Below, piece by piece: positions 6,991 to 25,738 of a DNA stretch of 28,807 nt (the first letter of the stretch is position 1; the number at the start of each line of letters is the position of its first letter). The position numbers were made by a program, and so were the translations under genes. Location of the stretch: assembly GCA_035653315.1 (NCBI GenBank), contig DASRCD010000448.1, positions 1 through 28,807 of the forward strand. The letters run 5' to 3'. Source of the DNA: Candidatus Angelobacter sp. (GTDB taxonomy: Bacteria; Acidobacteriota; Terriglobia; Terriglobales; Acidobacteriaceae). The notes under the pieces are model-generated. The model had not been told where the DNA came from, ran no database searches, and worked only from the letters and a program-made list of their open reading frames with translations.

Positions 6991-7115
6991 AATCATAATT
7001 TTATGAAGAAGAGGCATGCACCCGCAAGCCGGTAAAACCCTGAAAACCGCGGTTACAAAGGTCAATAGACCTGCGGGCGCATCTGTTGCCAGGAACGAAT
7101 CAACTAAGAAGTTGC

Positions 7116-19835: not shown

Positions 19836-20207
19836 TCATTTTGCGTGAAGTTTCAGCGTAATATTTGCTTCCTTGCGGTTATCAAAACCACTAAGCGTTT
19901 TGGTATCGGTATGGGCGCCTTCATGCTCGGCATACACTTCATAATCCACATTGGGCGCCAAGCCGGGAAAGCGATAACTGCCATCCGCCTCAGTGATGTA
20001 TGTCTTGATTGCCAAAGTTTTAGTGTTCTTGACGTAAACAATGGCCTTCTGCACAGGTTCGCTGCGGTCATTTAAAACGTGACCCACCAGCGTTCGGGGC
20101 TCATTTTGCGAGCCTCGCTGCATCTCAGCCACAGCCGGAGAAGCGCCAATGCAGGCAAACACACCACAGGCAAGCAAAACAGCCGTAATGATGGTTCGCC
20201 GTTTCAT
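19836..20207 (-). CDS. Secreted carboxypeptidase-regulatory-like (beta-sandwich) domain protein B
   Basis: Signal peptide MKRRTIITAVLLACGVFACIGASPAVA followed by LVGHVLNDRSEPVQKAIVYV..TEADGSYRFPGLAPNVDYEVYAEH. AGGAG lies upstream. Confidence 0.82.
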   Translation of the reverse strand: MKRRTIITAVLLACGVFACIGASPAVAEMQRGSQNEPRTLVGHVLNDRSEPVQKAIVYVKNTKTLAIKTYITEADGSYRFPGLAPNVDYEVYAEHEGAHTDTKTLSGFDNRKEANITLKLHAK

Positions 20208-20232
20208 CAAGAGCACTCCTTTTGCCGGCCCG

Positions 20233-20649
20233 CTATTGCAGATGCAATCCGATGTCTTTACGCTCGTCGTTATCTATACGAACCCTGGTCTCACCCCTGA
20301 GTTTTTTCTTTTTTGAAAGCTGCGGTTTGCCATCTGAACCAACAGGAGCATACACCGCTTCTCCCTTGACCAGATAATCGGCCGTTCCCGCAGGCACACG
20401 CTGGGCAAACTCTCCGCGATGGTCAGAAAGCAATTCCCAGCTCTGGTGCTTTTTTCCCTGCGACTGAATTGTGACCTTTACCCCGTACAGCGGACGATCA
20501 TCCGGCCCATAAGCTGTGCCGAAAATCAGGGCGTATGGTTTTTCCTTGTTTTTATCATTCGCCAAAGCGGCGGGCTGGAGCAGCGTGAAGAAGAGCCAGG
20601 AAACAACGCAAGCAGCCGCTATCGGACGCCAGCGCAGTTTAGTAATCAC
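20233..20649 (-). CDS. Secreted carboxypeptidase-regulatory-like domain protein A
   Basis: GTG start at 20649 overlaps the upstream gene by 11 nt. Signal peptide ending ..QPAALA is followed by IFGTAYGPDDRPLYGVKVTI..SDHRGEF. Confidence 0.72.
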   Translation of the reverse strand: MITKLRWRPIAAACVVSWLFFTLLQPAALANDKNKEKPYALIFGTAYGPDDRPLYGVKVTIQSQGKKHQSWELLSDHRGEFAQRVPAGTADYLVKGEAVYAPVGSDGKPQLSKKKKLRGETRVRIDNDERKDIGLHLQ

Positions 20650-20842
20650 TATCCTCGTCTTCCTCGTCTTCGTCTTCATCCTCATCGTCTTCATCAAGCT
20701 CATCAATGGGGTTCAGTTCCAGCGGATGCTTGGTGACGACTTCAAAGTCCGAGCCGCACTCCGGGCATGAAACAATCTCGCCTTCGTCGAGTTCTTCTTC
20801 GTCCAGATCGAGATCGGTTTCGCATTCCGGGCAAATTGCCAT
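20639..20842 (-). CDS. LysW-like Zn-ribbon protein with poly-acidic tail (lacks EDWGE)
   Basis: CPEC..GEIVSCPECGSDFEVV..PLEL matches the LysW pattern. A strong SD (GGAGG) lies at 20851-20855. Confidence 0.85.
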   Translation of the reverse strand: MAICPECETDLDLDEEELDEGEIVSCPECGSDFEVVTKHPLELNPIDELDEDDEDEDEDEEDEDSDY

Positions 20843-20946
20843 TTCACTTTCCTCCTAATGGGGCTGCCACAGAAGAGTGGCCAGTACCACGTGATTATAT
20901 TTAGAATCTCTTGGGGTTGTCGTCAAGTTCTCAAATTGAGGTCTGA

Positions 20947-22422
20947 ATGTTACTCCTGCGCCATAACAAATTAATTATCATCTCGATTGCGCTTCTGATG
21001 CTTGCGTCTACTTATGCCGTTGCCCAAAAGCCTGCAGCAAAAAAAAGCAGCCGTTCAGCGGTTCCAAAGAACACAGAAAAAAAGAAGACAGAAAAAACTC
21101 CCGCCAGAAGCAAACGGGAACGCGACCCTGCCATTACTCAAATTATAAAAGATGTTTCCCCGCAGCGTGTGCAGCAAACCATTGAAAAGCTGGTCAGCTT
21201 TGGAACGCGCAGCACGCTTTCCGTCAACAACCCGGATGCAGCCACATCAAACCAGGGCATTGTAGCCGCGCGCAACTGGATCAAATCAGAATTTGAGCGT
21301 ATTTCATCAGAATGCAATGGATGCCTGGAAGTCAAGACGGATACATTCATTGAGCAGCCAAAAGGCCCCAAAGACCGCATTCCACAGCCCACGGAAATCC
21401 AGAATGTTTATGCAATCCTGAAAGGCACGGACCCGGAGCAGGCCAAGCGGGTTTACCTGGTTACAGGACATTACGATTCGCGCAACTCTGATGTAATGAA
21501 CTCCACGGCTCCCGCTCCTGGCGCAAATGACGATGGCAGCGGCACAACAGTTTCCATTGAGTGCGCGCGTGTGCTCAGCAAGCATAAATTTCCCGCGACC
21601 ATTATTTTTCTGACCGTGGCCGGTGAAGAGCAGGGACTGAACGGCAGCACCCATTTTGCCAAGATGGCCAAGGAACAGGGCTGGCAGCTTGAAGGCGTGC
21701 TGAACAATGACATTGTGGGCGGCAACACTACGCCGGGCGATACTGCACAAAATAAAAACTGGGTGCGTGTTTTTTCTGAAGGCATTCCCGCCGCGGCAAC
21801 AGAAGCCGACCTTCGCCGCATACGCTCCGTTGGCGGCGAGAATGATTCTGCTTCACGCCAGCTTGCCCGTTATGTTAATTCCGTGAGTGAGACCTATGAT
21901 TTTGGTTCATTTGTTCCCAAGCTGATCTTCCGTCGTGATCGCTATCTGCGCGGCGGGGATCATAGCGCATTTAATGAATCAGGGTTTGCCGCAGTTCGCT
22001 TCACTGAATATCGCGAGGACTTCAATCATCAGCACCAGACGCTGCGCACCGAAAACGGCATTGAATATGGCGATCTGCCGAAATTTGTGGACTTTAATTA
22101 CGTGGCGAATGTGGCGCGCTTGAATGCGGCAACGCTTGCAGCCCTGGCTTCAGCGCCTGCGCCGCCTGCTGACGTACATATCCTGACCAAGGGGCTGGAA
22201 AATGATTCCAAGATCGAGTGGAAGCCTGCCGCCGGCGCCACTGCTTATGAAGTACTCTGGCGCAAGACTACAGATGCAGACTTCTCTGATGACGACATGA
22301 CGCGCATCACAGAAACCAAAGTTGACCTGCCCGACTCTAAAGACAACGTGATTTTCGGGGTGCGGTCAGTGGATGCGAAGGGCCATCGTAGTTTGATCGT
22401 GATTCCCGAACCGGAAAGATAA
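20947..22422 (+). CDS. Secreted M28-family metallopeptidase with C-terminal FN3-like domain
   Basis: Motifs GHYDS, GANDDGSG, GEEQGL, NNDIVG, GGDH and HQHQ. The C-terminal part is PPADV..IEWKP..AYEVLWR. Confidence 0.9.
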   Translation: MLLLRHNKLIIISIALLMLASTYAVAQKPAAKKSSRSAVPKNTEKKKTEKTPARSKRERDPAITQIIKDVSPQRVQQTIEKLVSFGTRSTLSVNNPDAATSNQGIVAARNWIKSEFERISSECNGCLEVKTDTFIEQPKGPKDRIPQPTEIQNVYAILKGTDPEQAKRVYLVTGHYDSRNSDVMNSTAPAPGANDDGSGTTVSIECARVLSKHKFPATIIFLTVAGEEQGLNGSTHFAKMAKEQGWQLEGVLNNDIVGGNTTPGDTAQNKNWVRVFSEGIPAAATEADLRRIRSVGGENDSASRQLARYVNSVSETYDFGSFVPKLIFRRDRYLRGGDHSAFNESGFAAVRFTEYREDFNHQHQTLRTENGIEYGDLPKFVDFNYVANVARLNAATLAALASAPAPPADVHILTKGLENDSKIEWKPAAGATAYEVLWRKTTDADFSDDDMTRITETKVDLPDSKDNVIFGVRSVDAKGHRSLIVIPEPER

Positions 22423-22424
22423 TT

Positions 22425-23261
22425 ATGCCAAGAAATACTTCAGCCAGCCTGGGCTTGCCGCGCTTTCAAGGCGCGGTAAGGGATCTCATTATCCTGAATG
22501 CAGCCATTTTCATTGTCCTGCTTTTGCTGTTCTCATTTGCACGGAACCTTGGCTCAGCAATATTGGATTATGGAAGTCTCTCCAGCGAAGGGATTGCGCA
22601 TGGATGGATTTGGCAGTTTCTAACTTATGGCTTTCTTCATGTCGATCCGCTCAACTTTGCATTGTCAATGCTTGGCATATATTTCATTGGCGGAGCGGTT
22701 GAAGACCAGATTGGGTCAAAGCGGCTGGTCAATCTCTATCTCACAGCATTGATCGGAGCGGGACTGATTGGCTTTTTTTTCTCCATGACAGGAAAAATTG
22801 GGCATGGTGGAGCTGCCGGGTCGGGTCCGGCAGCTAACGCGCTTCTCATGGTTTTTTATTTTCTCTACCGTGAAGCGCGCGTTATGCCCATGTTTATCCC
22901 CATTCCGATTCCCATCAAGTACATTGTGATTTTCACGGCTGCCATTGAAGCTGCGTACCTCCTGCTCTCTGGCTTCTCTCTTATGATGATGGTGCAGCTG
23001 CTTGGCTTGGGAATGGGGTATGTCTGGTATCGATTCATGTGGCGCCGCCGCAGCCCGTTTGCATTCGTTGGGAATCAGATGGACTCTTTACGCAACAGCT
23101 ACCACCGCTGGAAGCTCAATCGCTCCAAGAAAAAGTTTCAGGTATATATGAAAAAGCACAGCCAGGATCCTAAAGATTATTTTGATGAATATGGCAATTT
23201 TCGTCCGCCCGATGATAAAGACAAAAAAAATGGCGGCAGCACCGGCGGCTGGGTGAATTGA
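22425..23261 (+). CDS. Rhomboid-like membrane protein, probably catalytically inactive
   Basis: WQFLTYGFLH loop and rhomboid-type TM pattern. GxSG is altered and no His is present in the last TM helix. The start is 2 nt after the M28 stop. Confidence 0.8.
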   Translation: MPRNTSASLGLPRFQGAVRDLIILNAAIFIVLLLLFSFARNLGSAILDYGSLSSEGIAHGWIWQFLTYGFLHVDPLNFALSMLGIYFIGGAVEDQIGSKRLVNLYLTALIGAGLIGFFFSMTGKIGHGGAAGSGPAANALLMVFYFLYREARVMPMFIPIPIPIKYIVIFTAAIEAAYLLLSGFSLMMMVQLLGLGMGYVWYRFMWRRRSPFAFVGNQMDSLRNSYHRWKLNRSKKKFQVYMKKHSQDPKDYFDEYGNFRPPDDKDKKNGGSTGGWVN

Positions 23262-23345: not shown

Positions 23346-24860
23346 CTACTTCTTTCTCCGTTCTGGCTCCACTGGCTTCTGTCTCGGTGCTGTTCGGCGT
23401 TCCTGCAGCCCTGGGGAAGTATGATCGCTGGTGCCAACCACATGCAGCCGCAAGAAATTTGTTGAACCGCTGCTTGATCTGGTTCCGGCCACAACGGCAA
23501 TAATGTCGCCGGATTGCGCTGCGTGCAGCTTTTGTAAAAAGCTTTCCGCCCTATGCACCATGTCTTCCGCATTCGGCGTCATCTCGCATGTGAGCGGTGA
23601 AACACCCCACATCAGGTTCAGGCGCGCCTGGACTTTTGCGTTCGCCGCAAATGCGTAAATCGGGGCTTTAGGACGATATTTGGAAATAAGCCGCGCCGTT
23701 GTTCCTGACTCCGTGTAAACCGCAATGGCTTTCATTTCCAGATCCTGCGCGGCATGAGCAACGGATTCGCAGATCGTTTCGGAGATGGAGAGATGCCGAT
23801 GTTGCCTGCGCCTTTGCACAGGCTCTTCCTTGGCCGATTCCGCCTCAAGCACAATCTTCGCCATGATCGCCACGGCTTCACGCGGATATTTGCCGCTTGC
23901 CGTCTCGGCGGAAAGCATGACTGCGTCTGTGCCATCAAGAATTGCGTTGGCCACATCGCTGGCTTCCGCGCGTGTAGGCCGCGGGTTCTCAATCATGGAT
24001 TCAAGCATCTGCGTGGCCGTAATCACCGGCTTGCGCCAGTCTGCGGCGCGGCGAATCACATGCTTCTGGATGATTGGCACTTTTTCCGCCGGCATTTCCA
24101 CGCCCAAATCGCCGCGTGCGACCATGATTCCATCTGCCACGTCAAGAATCTCTTCCAGGTTCTCCGGATCAACTGCCTGCGGCTTCTCCAGTTTCGCAAT
24201 CACCCATGCATCAGAGTTATGCACCCGCACCAGCCGCTTTACCAGACGCACATCGTCAGCAGTGCGGATAAAAGACACAGCCACCATGTCCACGCCGTGC
24301 TTCAGGCCAAATTCCAGGTCTTTTTCGTCTTTTTCCGTGAGCGATGGCACGCTGACCACCGTGCCGGGCAGATTGATGCCTTTATGCTCTCCCAGCAGCC
24401 CGCCGTTAATGACCTCGCATTCAACGTCATCACCGCGTACCGCTGTGACACGCAACTCTATCAAGCCATCGGAAAGCAGAATGCGCGCGCCGGGCTCCAC
24501 TTCCTGCGCCAATGTCTTAAAAGTTGTGGAAAGCAACGTGGCAGTGCCGGCGATATCGCGCGACGTAATCGTGAGCTTTGCGCCGCCTTTCAAAGCAATG
24601 GGCGTGCGATATTTAAGGCGTCCGGTCCTGATCTTTGGCCCCTGGAGGTCTTGCAGAATGCAAATGACGCGGCCCTCTTTTTCGGCAACCTTCCGCAGCC
24701 GCTCAATGATGCGCGCATGTTCTTCATGGGTTCCGTGCGAAAAATTCAGGCGGGCAACGTCCATGCCTGCCCGCATCAGGTCGCGCAACACAGCCTCAGA
24801 GCTGCTGGCCGGGCCGATGGTGCAGACAATTTTTGCTTTGCGTAGGCTACCTGCGTTCAT
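23346..24860 (-). CDS. pyk: Pyruvate kinase
   Basis: Motifs RKAKIVCTIGP, RLNFSHG, DLQGPKIR, IAKLEK, IMVARGDLGVE, ATQMLESM and DAVMLSAETA. Start is set at ATG 24860. Confidence 0.97.
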   Translation of the reverse strand: MNAGSLRKAKIVCTIGPASSSEAVLRDLMRAGMDVARLNFSHGTHEEHARIIERLRKVAEKEGRVICILQDLQGPKIRTGRLKYRTPIALKGGAKLTITSRDIAGTATLLSTTFKTLAQEVEPGARILLSDGLIELRVTAVRGDDVECEVINGGLLGEHKGINLPGTVVSVPSLTEKDEKDLEFGLKHGVDMVAVSFIRTADDVRLVKRLVRVHNSDAWVIAKLEKPQAVDPENLEEILDVADGIMVARGDLGVEMPAEKVPIIQKHVIRRAADWRKPVITATQMLESMIENPRPTRAEASDVANAILDGTDAVMLSAETASGKYPREAVAIMAKIVLEAESAKEEPVQRRRQHRHLSISETICESVAHAAQDLEMKAIAVYTESGTTARLISKYRPKAPIYAFAANAKVQARLNLMWGVSPLTCEMTPNAEDMVHRAESFLQKLHAAQSGDIIAVVAGTRSSSGSTNFLRLHVVGTSDHTSPGLQERRTAPRQKPVEPERRKK

Positions 24861-24883
24861 CCCTTGTTCTTTAGATGCGGTCG

Positions 24884-25738
24884 TCAAACCCTTACCTTCT
24901 TCTTCCTGGCGCTTTTCTCCGCCAGTTTTGGATATACCTGCGCGTTCATCTCCGCGCCCAGCAGAACGATAATGGAAACAATATAGAGCCACACCAGCAA
25001 TGCAATGGCGGCGCTGAGCGATCCATAGACAACACTGTAGGTTGCGTAATCTCGCACATACCAGCCAAAAATTACGGTGGCGGGAAACCACAGCACGCCG
25101 GCCATGATTGCCCCCGGCAATACGCGGCGCCATGACTGCGTCTTGGGTAATCCATGATGATAAATCAGGCTCATGAATGCGATGGCCGTGAGCAGCGCAA
25201 TCGCCCAGCGCACGCCGTCCCATACGAGCAATACCAGAGGCTTGAACAGATGCATGGTTTCAGCCTGGACCCAGTTCTCAACCTGGTCGCCAAAGGCAAC
25301 CAGCAGAGTTGCAAAACTCAATGGCACAAGCGCCAGCAATACCAGATAAAGCGCAATGGCCCGCTCTCTCCAGAAGCCCCACGTATTTTCCATGCCATAA
25401 GCTTTGCGGAAACCATCCATCCAGGAGATCATCACGCCTGACGCGGCCAGCACGGTTACAATAGACGCTGAGTAGATGATGCGTGTAGCGTGATGTTGCT
25501 TGGTCTAGAAGAACCCCAGCGCCACTGAACGCGAGCCCGGCGGCAGCACCCAGCCAATTGCCCCGGAAATCTGCTGTAGAAATCCTTCTGTCTGGTGTGA
25601 GGCTTCCAATACTGATGCTACAACCAGAAAAGCTGGAAACAATGTAAGAATGGATGAATACGCCGCTCCCTTGGCGGCTGAAAACTGTCCGTGCTGAAAA
25701 GCCTGCCAAAAGGCCCGGCGGAACCGCGTGAAGTGCAT
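24884..25738 (-). pseudogene. YihY/virulence factor BrkB family gene interrupted by one in-frame TAG at 25505-25507
   Basis: ORFs 25505-25738 and 24884-25453 share a frame. The sequence reads ..ALGFF*TKQHHATRIIYSASIVTVLAASG.. with no other stop. YihY motifs present: AAYSSILTLFP, YATYSVVYGSLSAAIALLVWLY and LGAEMN. Confidence 0.8.

Follow-up and report, generated by a model that had tools for sequence, protein, structure and literature searches.

The small LysW-like protein encoded in the window (the whole stretch of 28,807 nucleotides that was analysed) is, with high confidence, a true structural homologue of LysW and an orphan member of the LysW superfamily. With high confidence, too, it is no amino-group carrier of lysine or arginine synthesis. 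As read from the sequence, its gene is the first of an operon that has a strong promoter and, by translational coupling, links it to two exported sandwich proteins. This operon was missed in an earlier note on the same DNA. We tentatively propose that the protein has lost the covalent carrier function and, instead of carrying a substrate, serves as a polyanionic partner or escort that binds non-covalently.

A LysW-type zinc ribbon with an acidic tail

The gene and its product comprise the following features:
20639..20842, minus strand: LysW-like gene, 67 aa plus stop (ORF and translation)
20851..20856, minus strand: Shine-Dalgarno (SD) sequence AGGAGG, 8 nt 5' of the LysW-like ATG (sequence)
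20705..20842, minus strand: predicted Cys4 zinc-ribbon globular domain, residues 1-46 (AlphaFold2 pLDDT about 85; fold matches; dN/dS)
20642..20704, minus strand: acidic tail, residues 47-67, with a 15-residue D/E run and the end SDY (composition; low AlphaFold2 confidence)

The earlier note, which named no strand, had described a 67 aa protein with CPEC, 33 D/E residues, a 15-residue D/E run, a terminal SDY and a strong SD sequence. All of these are present. The protein contains two CPEC knuckles of the CPxC/CPxCG type. It has 15 Asp and 18 Glu, a single Lys and no Arg. The uninterrupted D/E run covers residues 50-64, and the C-terminus reads EDSDY. A GGAGG-type SD sequence is found in most of 13 orthologue upstream regions inspected.

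The LysW-type fold postulated in the earlier note was corroborated by profile and structure comparisons. Pfam model PF21344 (Zn_ribbon_LysW) matches residues 4-48 with 45.8 bits (cut-off 27). Using a profile of 24 family members, LysW from T. thermophilus (3wwl, E 4e-10) and LysW from T. kodakarensis (5k2m) were found as best solved relatives. In the AlphaFold2 model, the ribbon has a pLDDT of about 85 and the tail of 55-63. The top six matches of this model in a PDB fold search are all LysW chains, so the fold is not an unrelated zinc ribbon. The best of them, 5eio_C, yields an rmsd of 0.9 Å over 45 residues with 42% identity. The protein shares its Cys4 zinc-ribbon fold with LysW/ArgW from T. 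thermophilus (3wwl/3wwn/5eio), T. kodakarensis (5k2m) and Sulfolobus tokodaii (3vpb), at 42-45% identity, and like them it combines an acidic surface of the globular part with a flexible, acidic stretch at the C-terminus. In contrast to them, it lacks EDWGE and the terminal Glu, the length of its tail is about double, partners of the type LysX/ArgX, LysZ, LysY, LysJ or LysK are not encoded alongside it, it belongs to a separate clade and its operon encodes exported proteins. Scoring against LysW HMMs, as the earlier note had proposed, gave a two-sided result: The Pfam domain model was passed, and both NCBIfam LysW equivalog models remained under their cut-offs (TIGR01206, 34.4 vs. 53.2; NF041070, 42.2 vs. 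75).

Conservation and phylogeny

A word-indexed search yielded 684 close relatives. Most of them bear the label Candidatus Angelobacter, and JGI often lists them as LysW. All 80 species-level loci of the genome collection belong by synteny to Terriglobia/Terriglobales. Three MAGs labelled Limnocylindrales, Verrucomicrobiia and Dormiibacterota (L086, L095, L103) contain the complete locus of the Terriglobales type, flanking genes included, which suggests mis-binned contigs or mislabelled bins. Within a sample of 401 Acidobacteriota genomes, 145 were matched by the profile. The gene is present in a single copy in all 38 sampled Terriglobia, 33 of 33 in the family and five of five elsewhere in the class. 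With a dN/dS of 0.10 (822 pairs), the ribbon evolves under strong purifying selection, and its four Cys are kept across the phylum. In a ribbon tree, the four EDWG[EQ] proteins encoded beside LysX/Y/Z/J are split from all 57 orphan acidic-tail proteins (support 98/89), and the Terriglobales proteins form one group (support 89/94).

By these sequence criteria – 684 homologues, the low ribbon dN/dS, and a conserved promoter and SD sequence – the LysW-like gene is real. The earlier note had considered that orthologues might end in EDWGE and that this copy might be degenerate or mis-assembled. EDWGE terminates none of 81 Terriglobales orthologues, and together with the number of homologues and the dN/dS value this rules out a degenerate or mis-assembled copy.

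Lysine and arginine synthesis proceed without the protein

LysW is the textbook case in which amino-acid synthesis employs a protein as protecting group and carrier. The earlier note had pointed out that EDWGE is absent and that the window contains no pathway genes. Both statements were confirmed: lysX, lysZ, lysY, lysJ and lysK are all missing from the window. In addition, neither LysX nor LysZ was detected by profile and tblastn anywhere in the genome assembly (838 contigs, 91.5% complete), which encodes one LysW-like copy. Since both the EDWGE motif and the pathway genes are missing, the canonical LysW chemistry is not available. When LysX, LysY, LysZ, homocitrate synthase and LysJ of the canonical acidobacterial cluster (L146/L140) were used in tblastn, LysX and LysZ had no match, and the hits were confined to ArgC- and ArgD-like genes. 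The genome encodes LysA of the diaminopimelate (DAP) route and an ordinary argC-argB-argD cluster, and as judged from these genes, lysine and arginine are synthesized via LysA and argC-argB-argD. Across the phylum, the LysW-type proteins encoded beside LysX are exclusively those with an EDWG[EQ] end.

A RimK/LysX-like ligase had been suggested as partner of the small protein. The genome search for lysX, argX and rimK proposed in the earlier note returned nothing above cut-off: The best scores in the whole genome were 57.9 for TIGR02144 (cut-off 275.6) and 72.3 for TIGR00768 (cut-off 143.4). The same holds for the GTDB family, where a RimK/LysX-family ligase above cut-off is encoded in none of 61 genera (one genome per genus). 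A search for the TTL family had no match in the genome, and the control genomes were silent, too.

One orphan RimK/LysX-like ATP-grasp protein of 321 aa is encoded on another contig (C208, locus L025) and reaches 73 bits at a cut-off of 143 bits. Its gene overlaps an SfnG-like LLM monooxygenase gene by one base, and this pair (C208:3368-5379) has a patchy distribution (41 of 401 phylum genomes). As a partner it was ruled out: It is present in nine of 33 family genomes, the LysW-like protein in all 33. The suggestion of a RimK/LysX-like ligase partner is therefore not supported.

An operon with two exported sandwich proteins

Upstream and downstream of the LysW-like gene, the following features were found:
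20894..20926, minus strand: predicted sigma-70-type promoter TTGACG, 17 nt, TAAATA, overlapping TATAAT (consensus scan)
20233..20649, minus strand: p147, putative exported transthyretin-like beta-sandwich protein (sequence, start position and codon bias, AlphaFold2, weak CarboxypepD_reg match)
19836..20216, minus strand: second putative exported beta-sandwich protein, CarboxypepD_reg, with a lipobox-like LLAC (PF13620, 44.6 bits)
20947..23261, plus strand: M28 peptidase and rhomboid genes, divergent (Pfam, synteny)

The promoter, of the form TTGAC[CG]-17-TAAATA, is conserved: The 8-mer CTAAATAT is located upstream in 70 of 81 loci and CTTGACCT in 42 of 81. Between promoter and SD sequence, the 5' leader contains a short GC-rich hairpin, GTGGTACTGGCCAC (20877-20890), which was flagged in a terminator scan and has no proper T-run. 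The strength of promoter and SD sequence predicts that the LysW-like gene is strongly expressed.

The GTG start codon of p147 is situated at 20649-20647, within the codons for Ser65 and Asp66 of the LysW-like gene. This means, both genes overlap by 11 nt. Translated from this GTG, p147 begins with a typical signal peptide composed of a basic n-region, a hydrophobic core and an ALA-N cleavage site. ATG and TTG codons further upstream in the tail-coding region were discarded as p147 starts. They carry no information, because the +1 frame of the GAN repeats is stop-free by nature and always encodes K/R/T/M. The AlphaFold2 model of p147 (pLDDT 86.5) has an N-terminal helix followed by a transthyretin/CarboxypepD_reg-type sandwich. 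A fold search with p147 pointed to a generic transthyretin/CarboxypepD_reg sandwich and to no specific function. In Swiss-Prot, its fold is matched best by two DUF1416 (SseC) proteins of M. tuberculosis, Rv0814c and Rv3118, with E about 1e-5 and 12% identity. Both are encoded next to rhodanese sulfurtransferases. A two-domain relative at locus L127 also reaches the DUF1416 cut-off. This model-based likeness of p147 may be taken as a lead only.

The second sandwich gene starts 16 nt past p147. Among 78 loci with enough sequence, 76 contain one or both sandwich genes at most 1.2 kb downstream of the LysW-like gene. The pairing is also kept in four loci from three other Terriglobia families (f2-f4), where the flanks differ. 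The M28/rhomboid flank is conserved in Terriglobales only and is not retained in three of these four loci. In most loci with enough downstream sequence, rpsA, encoding ribosomal protein S1, is found in convergent orientation about 1 kb away. It is absent from this position in the four loci of the other families of the class. On the other side, the longest pyruvate kinase ORF (23346-25453, 625 aa) carries an N-terminal extension of ~120 codons that overlaps a same-strand BrkB/YihY-family gene. Relatives have 497-513 aa, and the real start is probably internal.

The LysW-like protein has a charge of about -32, compared to +5 for mature p147 (pI 9.4). A complex prediction for the LysW-like protein with full-length p147 (alignments A1 and A2) scored 0.00 and provides evidence neither way.

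The genomic context bears on two alternative roles. The first is that of a nucleic-acid mimic or regulator, whose tail would take the place of RNA or DNA on a basic protein like S1, RNA polymerase or a nucleoid protein. The acidic tail of the delta subunit of Firmicute RNA polymerase resembles the proposed mimicry. Tail charge and disorder would fit this role, as would the housekeeping-like ubiquity of the gene, its near-consensus promoter with a strong SD sequence and the convergent rpsA gene. However, the link to nucleic-acid-binding proteins consists of synteny alone, it does not extend to the four loci of other families, and the conserved, translationally coupled neighbour encodes an exported protein. 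Hence, we regard this role as unlikely.

The second is a metal protein, either with a rubredoxin-like iron redox Cys4 site or as a polycarboxylate buffer for Ca, Fe(III), Al or Mn in bacteria from acid soils. It might explain the CPxC/CPxCG knuckles combined with 33 carboxylates, and the neighbourhood includes both the divergent M28 metallopeptidase and the second sandwich protein, which has a NikL-like match. Yet this match is weak and far below cut-off, the conserved operon lacks a metal-regulator site and a transporter, and the LysW proteins, its nearest relatives with a known structure, are carriers with a zinc ribbon, not redox proteins. A rubredoxin-like NCBIfam model scored 17.4 on the LysW-like protein (cut-off 32). 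Such a metal protein appears quite unlikely.

The tail and its C-terminus

Orthologue tails, counted from the P-L-E-L motif onwards up to the last residue, were compared in 81 Terriglobales species. They comprise 18-30 aa (median 23) with a median of 65% D/E. The C-terminal comparison suggested in the earlier note revealed a variable end, with EDWGE in none of the 81 species. The final residue is Ser in 34, Tyr in 23, Glu in 14 and Asp in six species. Tyr, Phe, Leu or Met occupies the last or next-to-last position in 46 of 81 (DYS, SDY, GDY, GEY, DFS, DLS). Fifteen tails have a purely acidic end, and 15 end with DEDS or GDDS.

The earlier note had compared the acidic tail and its Tyr to the tails of alpha-tubulin. 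As Tyr is terminal in only 23 of 81 species, it is a trait of certain lineages and does not characterize the family. For the Ser/Gly-Asp/Glu pair before the end, there is a second explanation, too, because its codons create the GTG of the downstream gene. Among 49 loci with such a pair, Gly/Ser is encoded by GGT in 26 and by AGT in 11, together 37 of 49, and Ser, where it occurs in this pair, has the codon AGT in 11 of 11 cases. In 32 loci, the GGT or AGT codon provides the GTG in the p147 frame. Thus, the tubulin analogy is not supported. An acidic C-terminal tail is common to the LysW-like protein, to ribosomal protein S6 in the RimK system and to alpha-tubulin in the tubulin tyrosine ligase system. 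Here, it is genome-encoded, and the two systems differ from ours in that the family genomes lack a RimK-family ligase above cut-off (0 of 61 genera) and Tyr is not conserved.

The same codons might suggest that the ORF acts in cis: The purine-rich tail region and the overlapping stop and start codons would load ribosomes onto the downstream gene, and the peptide would be of little import. The overlap of 11 nt between the ORF and p147, the strong NGT codon bias that creates the GTG of p147, and the GAN repeats, which are SD-like throughout, agree with this idea. Against it stand the strong purifying selection on the ribbon (dN/dS 0.10), the LysW fold with its four Cys, both of which are retained throughout the phylum, and relatives that are monocistronic in two other families. 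We consider a purely cis-acting ORF highly improbable.

LysW-like genes in other acidobacterial lineages

In other acidobacterial families, the stop codon of the LysW-like gene overlaps or abuts the start codon of a LarE equivalog (TIGR00268, 318 bits) in at least 15 of 40 loci, followed by Pal. The LarE-adjacent loci are L107, L109-L112, L115, L116, L124-L126, L129, L130, L136, L137 and L143 (around position 7000 each). LarE encoded there is of the three-Cys type, and pal is a lipoprotein gene. These LarE-coupled orphans and the Terriglobia proteins belong to the same orphan clade and share the long poly-D/E tail, the absence of LysX and the overlap with the next gene. They differ in their downstream genes – LarE and then Pal compared to two sandwich genes – and in their ends: Many LarE-coupled proteins have a DW.E-type end (8 of 15), and the Terriglobia proteins have [SG][DE]Y or another variant.

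This arrangement raises the alternative that the protein is a covalent carrier or acceptor for an enzyme outside the RimK family, e.g. the PP-loop sulfur-insertion enzyme LarE, which would activate the C-terminal alpha-carboxylate of the tail or an internal Glu. The LarE-adjacent loci with their DW.E-type ends are in accord with it, and LarE and LarC are encoded elsewhere in the genome of the window, LarE on another contig. By contrast, LarE is hundreds of kb or more away from the LysW-like gene in complete Terriglobia relatives, and it is missing in five of 33 family genomes that are 100% complete and keep the LysW-like protein. Among 401 genomes, it is much more widespread than the small protein (296 vs. 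145). For these three reasons, LarE is not an obligate partner in Terriglobia and was rejected as such. The terminal residue is not conserved, which argues against such a carrier as well, as do the lack of a RimK/LysX ligase and of a TTL match (the TTL control was silent). All in all, a carrier for another enzyme is rather unlikely and, in our opinion, less likely than non-covalent polyanionic binding.

Two further families, f31 and f88, have a monocistronic LysW-like gene, convergent with an acidobacterial VWA (acidobact_VWFA) gene. It is located 1-2 kb from a gene for a single protein with two CarboxypepD_reg domains and an excisionase-family HTH. This two-domain protein may correspond, as a fusion, to the pair of single-domain genes found in the window. 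We count this recurrence in favour of the binding-partner reading discussed below. At the f31/f88 loci L114:4294-7180, L118, L121 and L127:6938-9187, the tails end with EDEF, DYDY and EEEEW.

Unusual architectures were encountered in metagenomic proteins. P0154, P0179, P0182, P0193, P0195, P0198 and P0234 contain two to six tandem LysW-like ribbons with acidic linkers between them. In P0151, P0161, P0166, P0175, P0186, P0191 and P0203, the ribbon switches to a K/R/T-rich stretch and sometimes continues into p147. This stretch is what the GAN repeats of the tail region encode when read in the +1 frame. Most likely, these calls are indel errors or miscalls in the repeat and not real fusions.

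A possible electrostatic escort

The polyanionic partner proposed at the outset, which among the options of the earlier note corresponds to that of a polyanionic binder or chaperone, is favoured by four observations: The docking features of LysW are kept, the covalent features are lost, the tail end is variable, and the gene is coupled to one for a basic exported protein. According to this proposal, the protein would have retained the ribbon and the flexible acidic tail from LysW, would have given up the covalent amino-group-carrier function and would use the non-covalent half of the LysW mechanism. Its charge of about -32, distributed over the ribbon and a disordered tail of roughly 20 residues, might let it dock on a partner protein with a basic surface, and the aromatic or hydrophobic residue that many lineages have at the tip of the tail might act as an anchor. 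The likeliest partners would be the two sandwich proteins in their precursor form, which are predicted to be produced together with it – in p147, the n-region of the signal peptide is itself basic – or another basic protein. In this way, the LysW-like protein could fulfil the role of a dedicated electrostatic escort or partner.

The type III secretion chaperones and the Tat-signal-binding REMPs like NapD include small acidic proteins that serve one exported partner and are encoded beside it. By analogy, the LysW-like protein would be small, very acidic and cytoplasmic, and it is encoded beside and predicted to be co-translated with an exported basic protein. Its fold, however, is unrelated to theirs, and no such secretion system is implicated. 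To our knowledge, an escort chaperone of such a type would have no described precedent for Sec substrates.

Some considerations count against an escort. As the sandwich proteins are exported out of the cytoplasm, they could be contacted only as precursors. A gene order shared within one class may simply have been inherited. The orthologous orphan of other acidobacterial classes is paired with LarE instead of sandwich genes, so the partner varies across the wider family. Moreover, small CarboxypepD_reg proteins are common in Acidobacteria, and therefore some proximity could be due to chance.

A broader hypothesis can be put forward, to which we assign a rather low probability: Orphan acidic-tail LysW-like proteins might constitute a new class of small partners that were re-coupled to different clients – LysX in the canonical case, LarE in the Vicinamibacteria type and the sandwich proteins in Terriglobia, where the small protein would be a cytoplasmic electrostatic escort. 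If this were true, the overlapping stop and start codons would allow the escort to be made in a fixed ratio with the exported protein.

Significance

A literature search yielded nothing on an orphan LysW-like family of Acidobacteria. The JGI name "alpha-aminoadipate carrier protein LysW" wrongly implies an aminoadipate lysine pathway and thus represents a widespread mis-annotation. Taken as a family, the orphans form a large and strongly selected branch of LysW proteins in an abundant soil phylum, which has shed the carrier motif and the known partner enzymes and is kept in every sampled Terriglobia genome. The identification of the binding partner would, besides correcting the mis-annotation, illustrate the re-use of a carrier scaffold.
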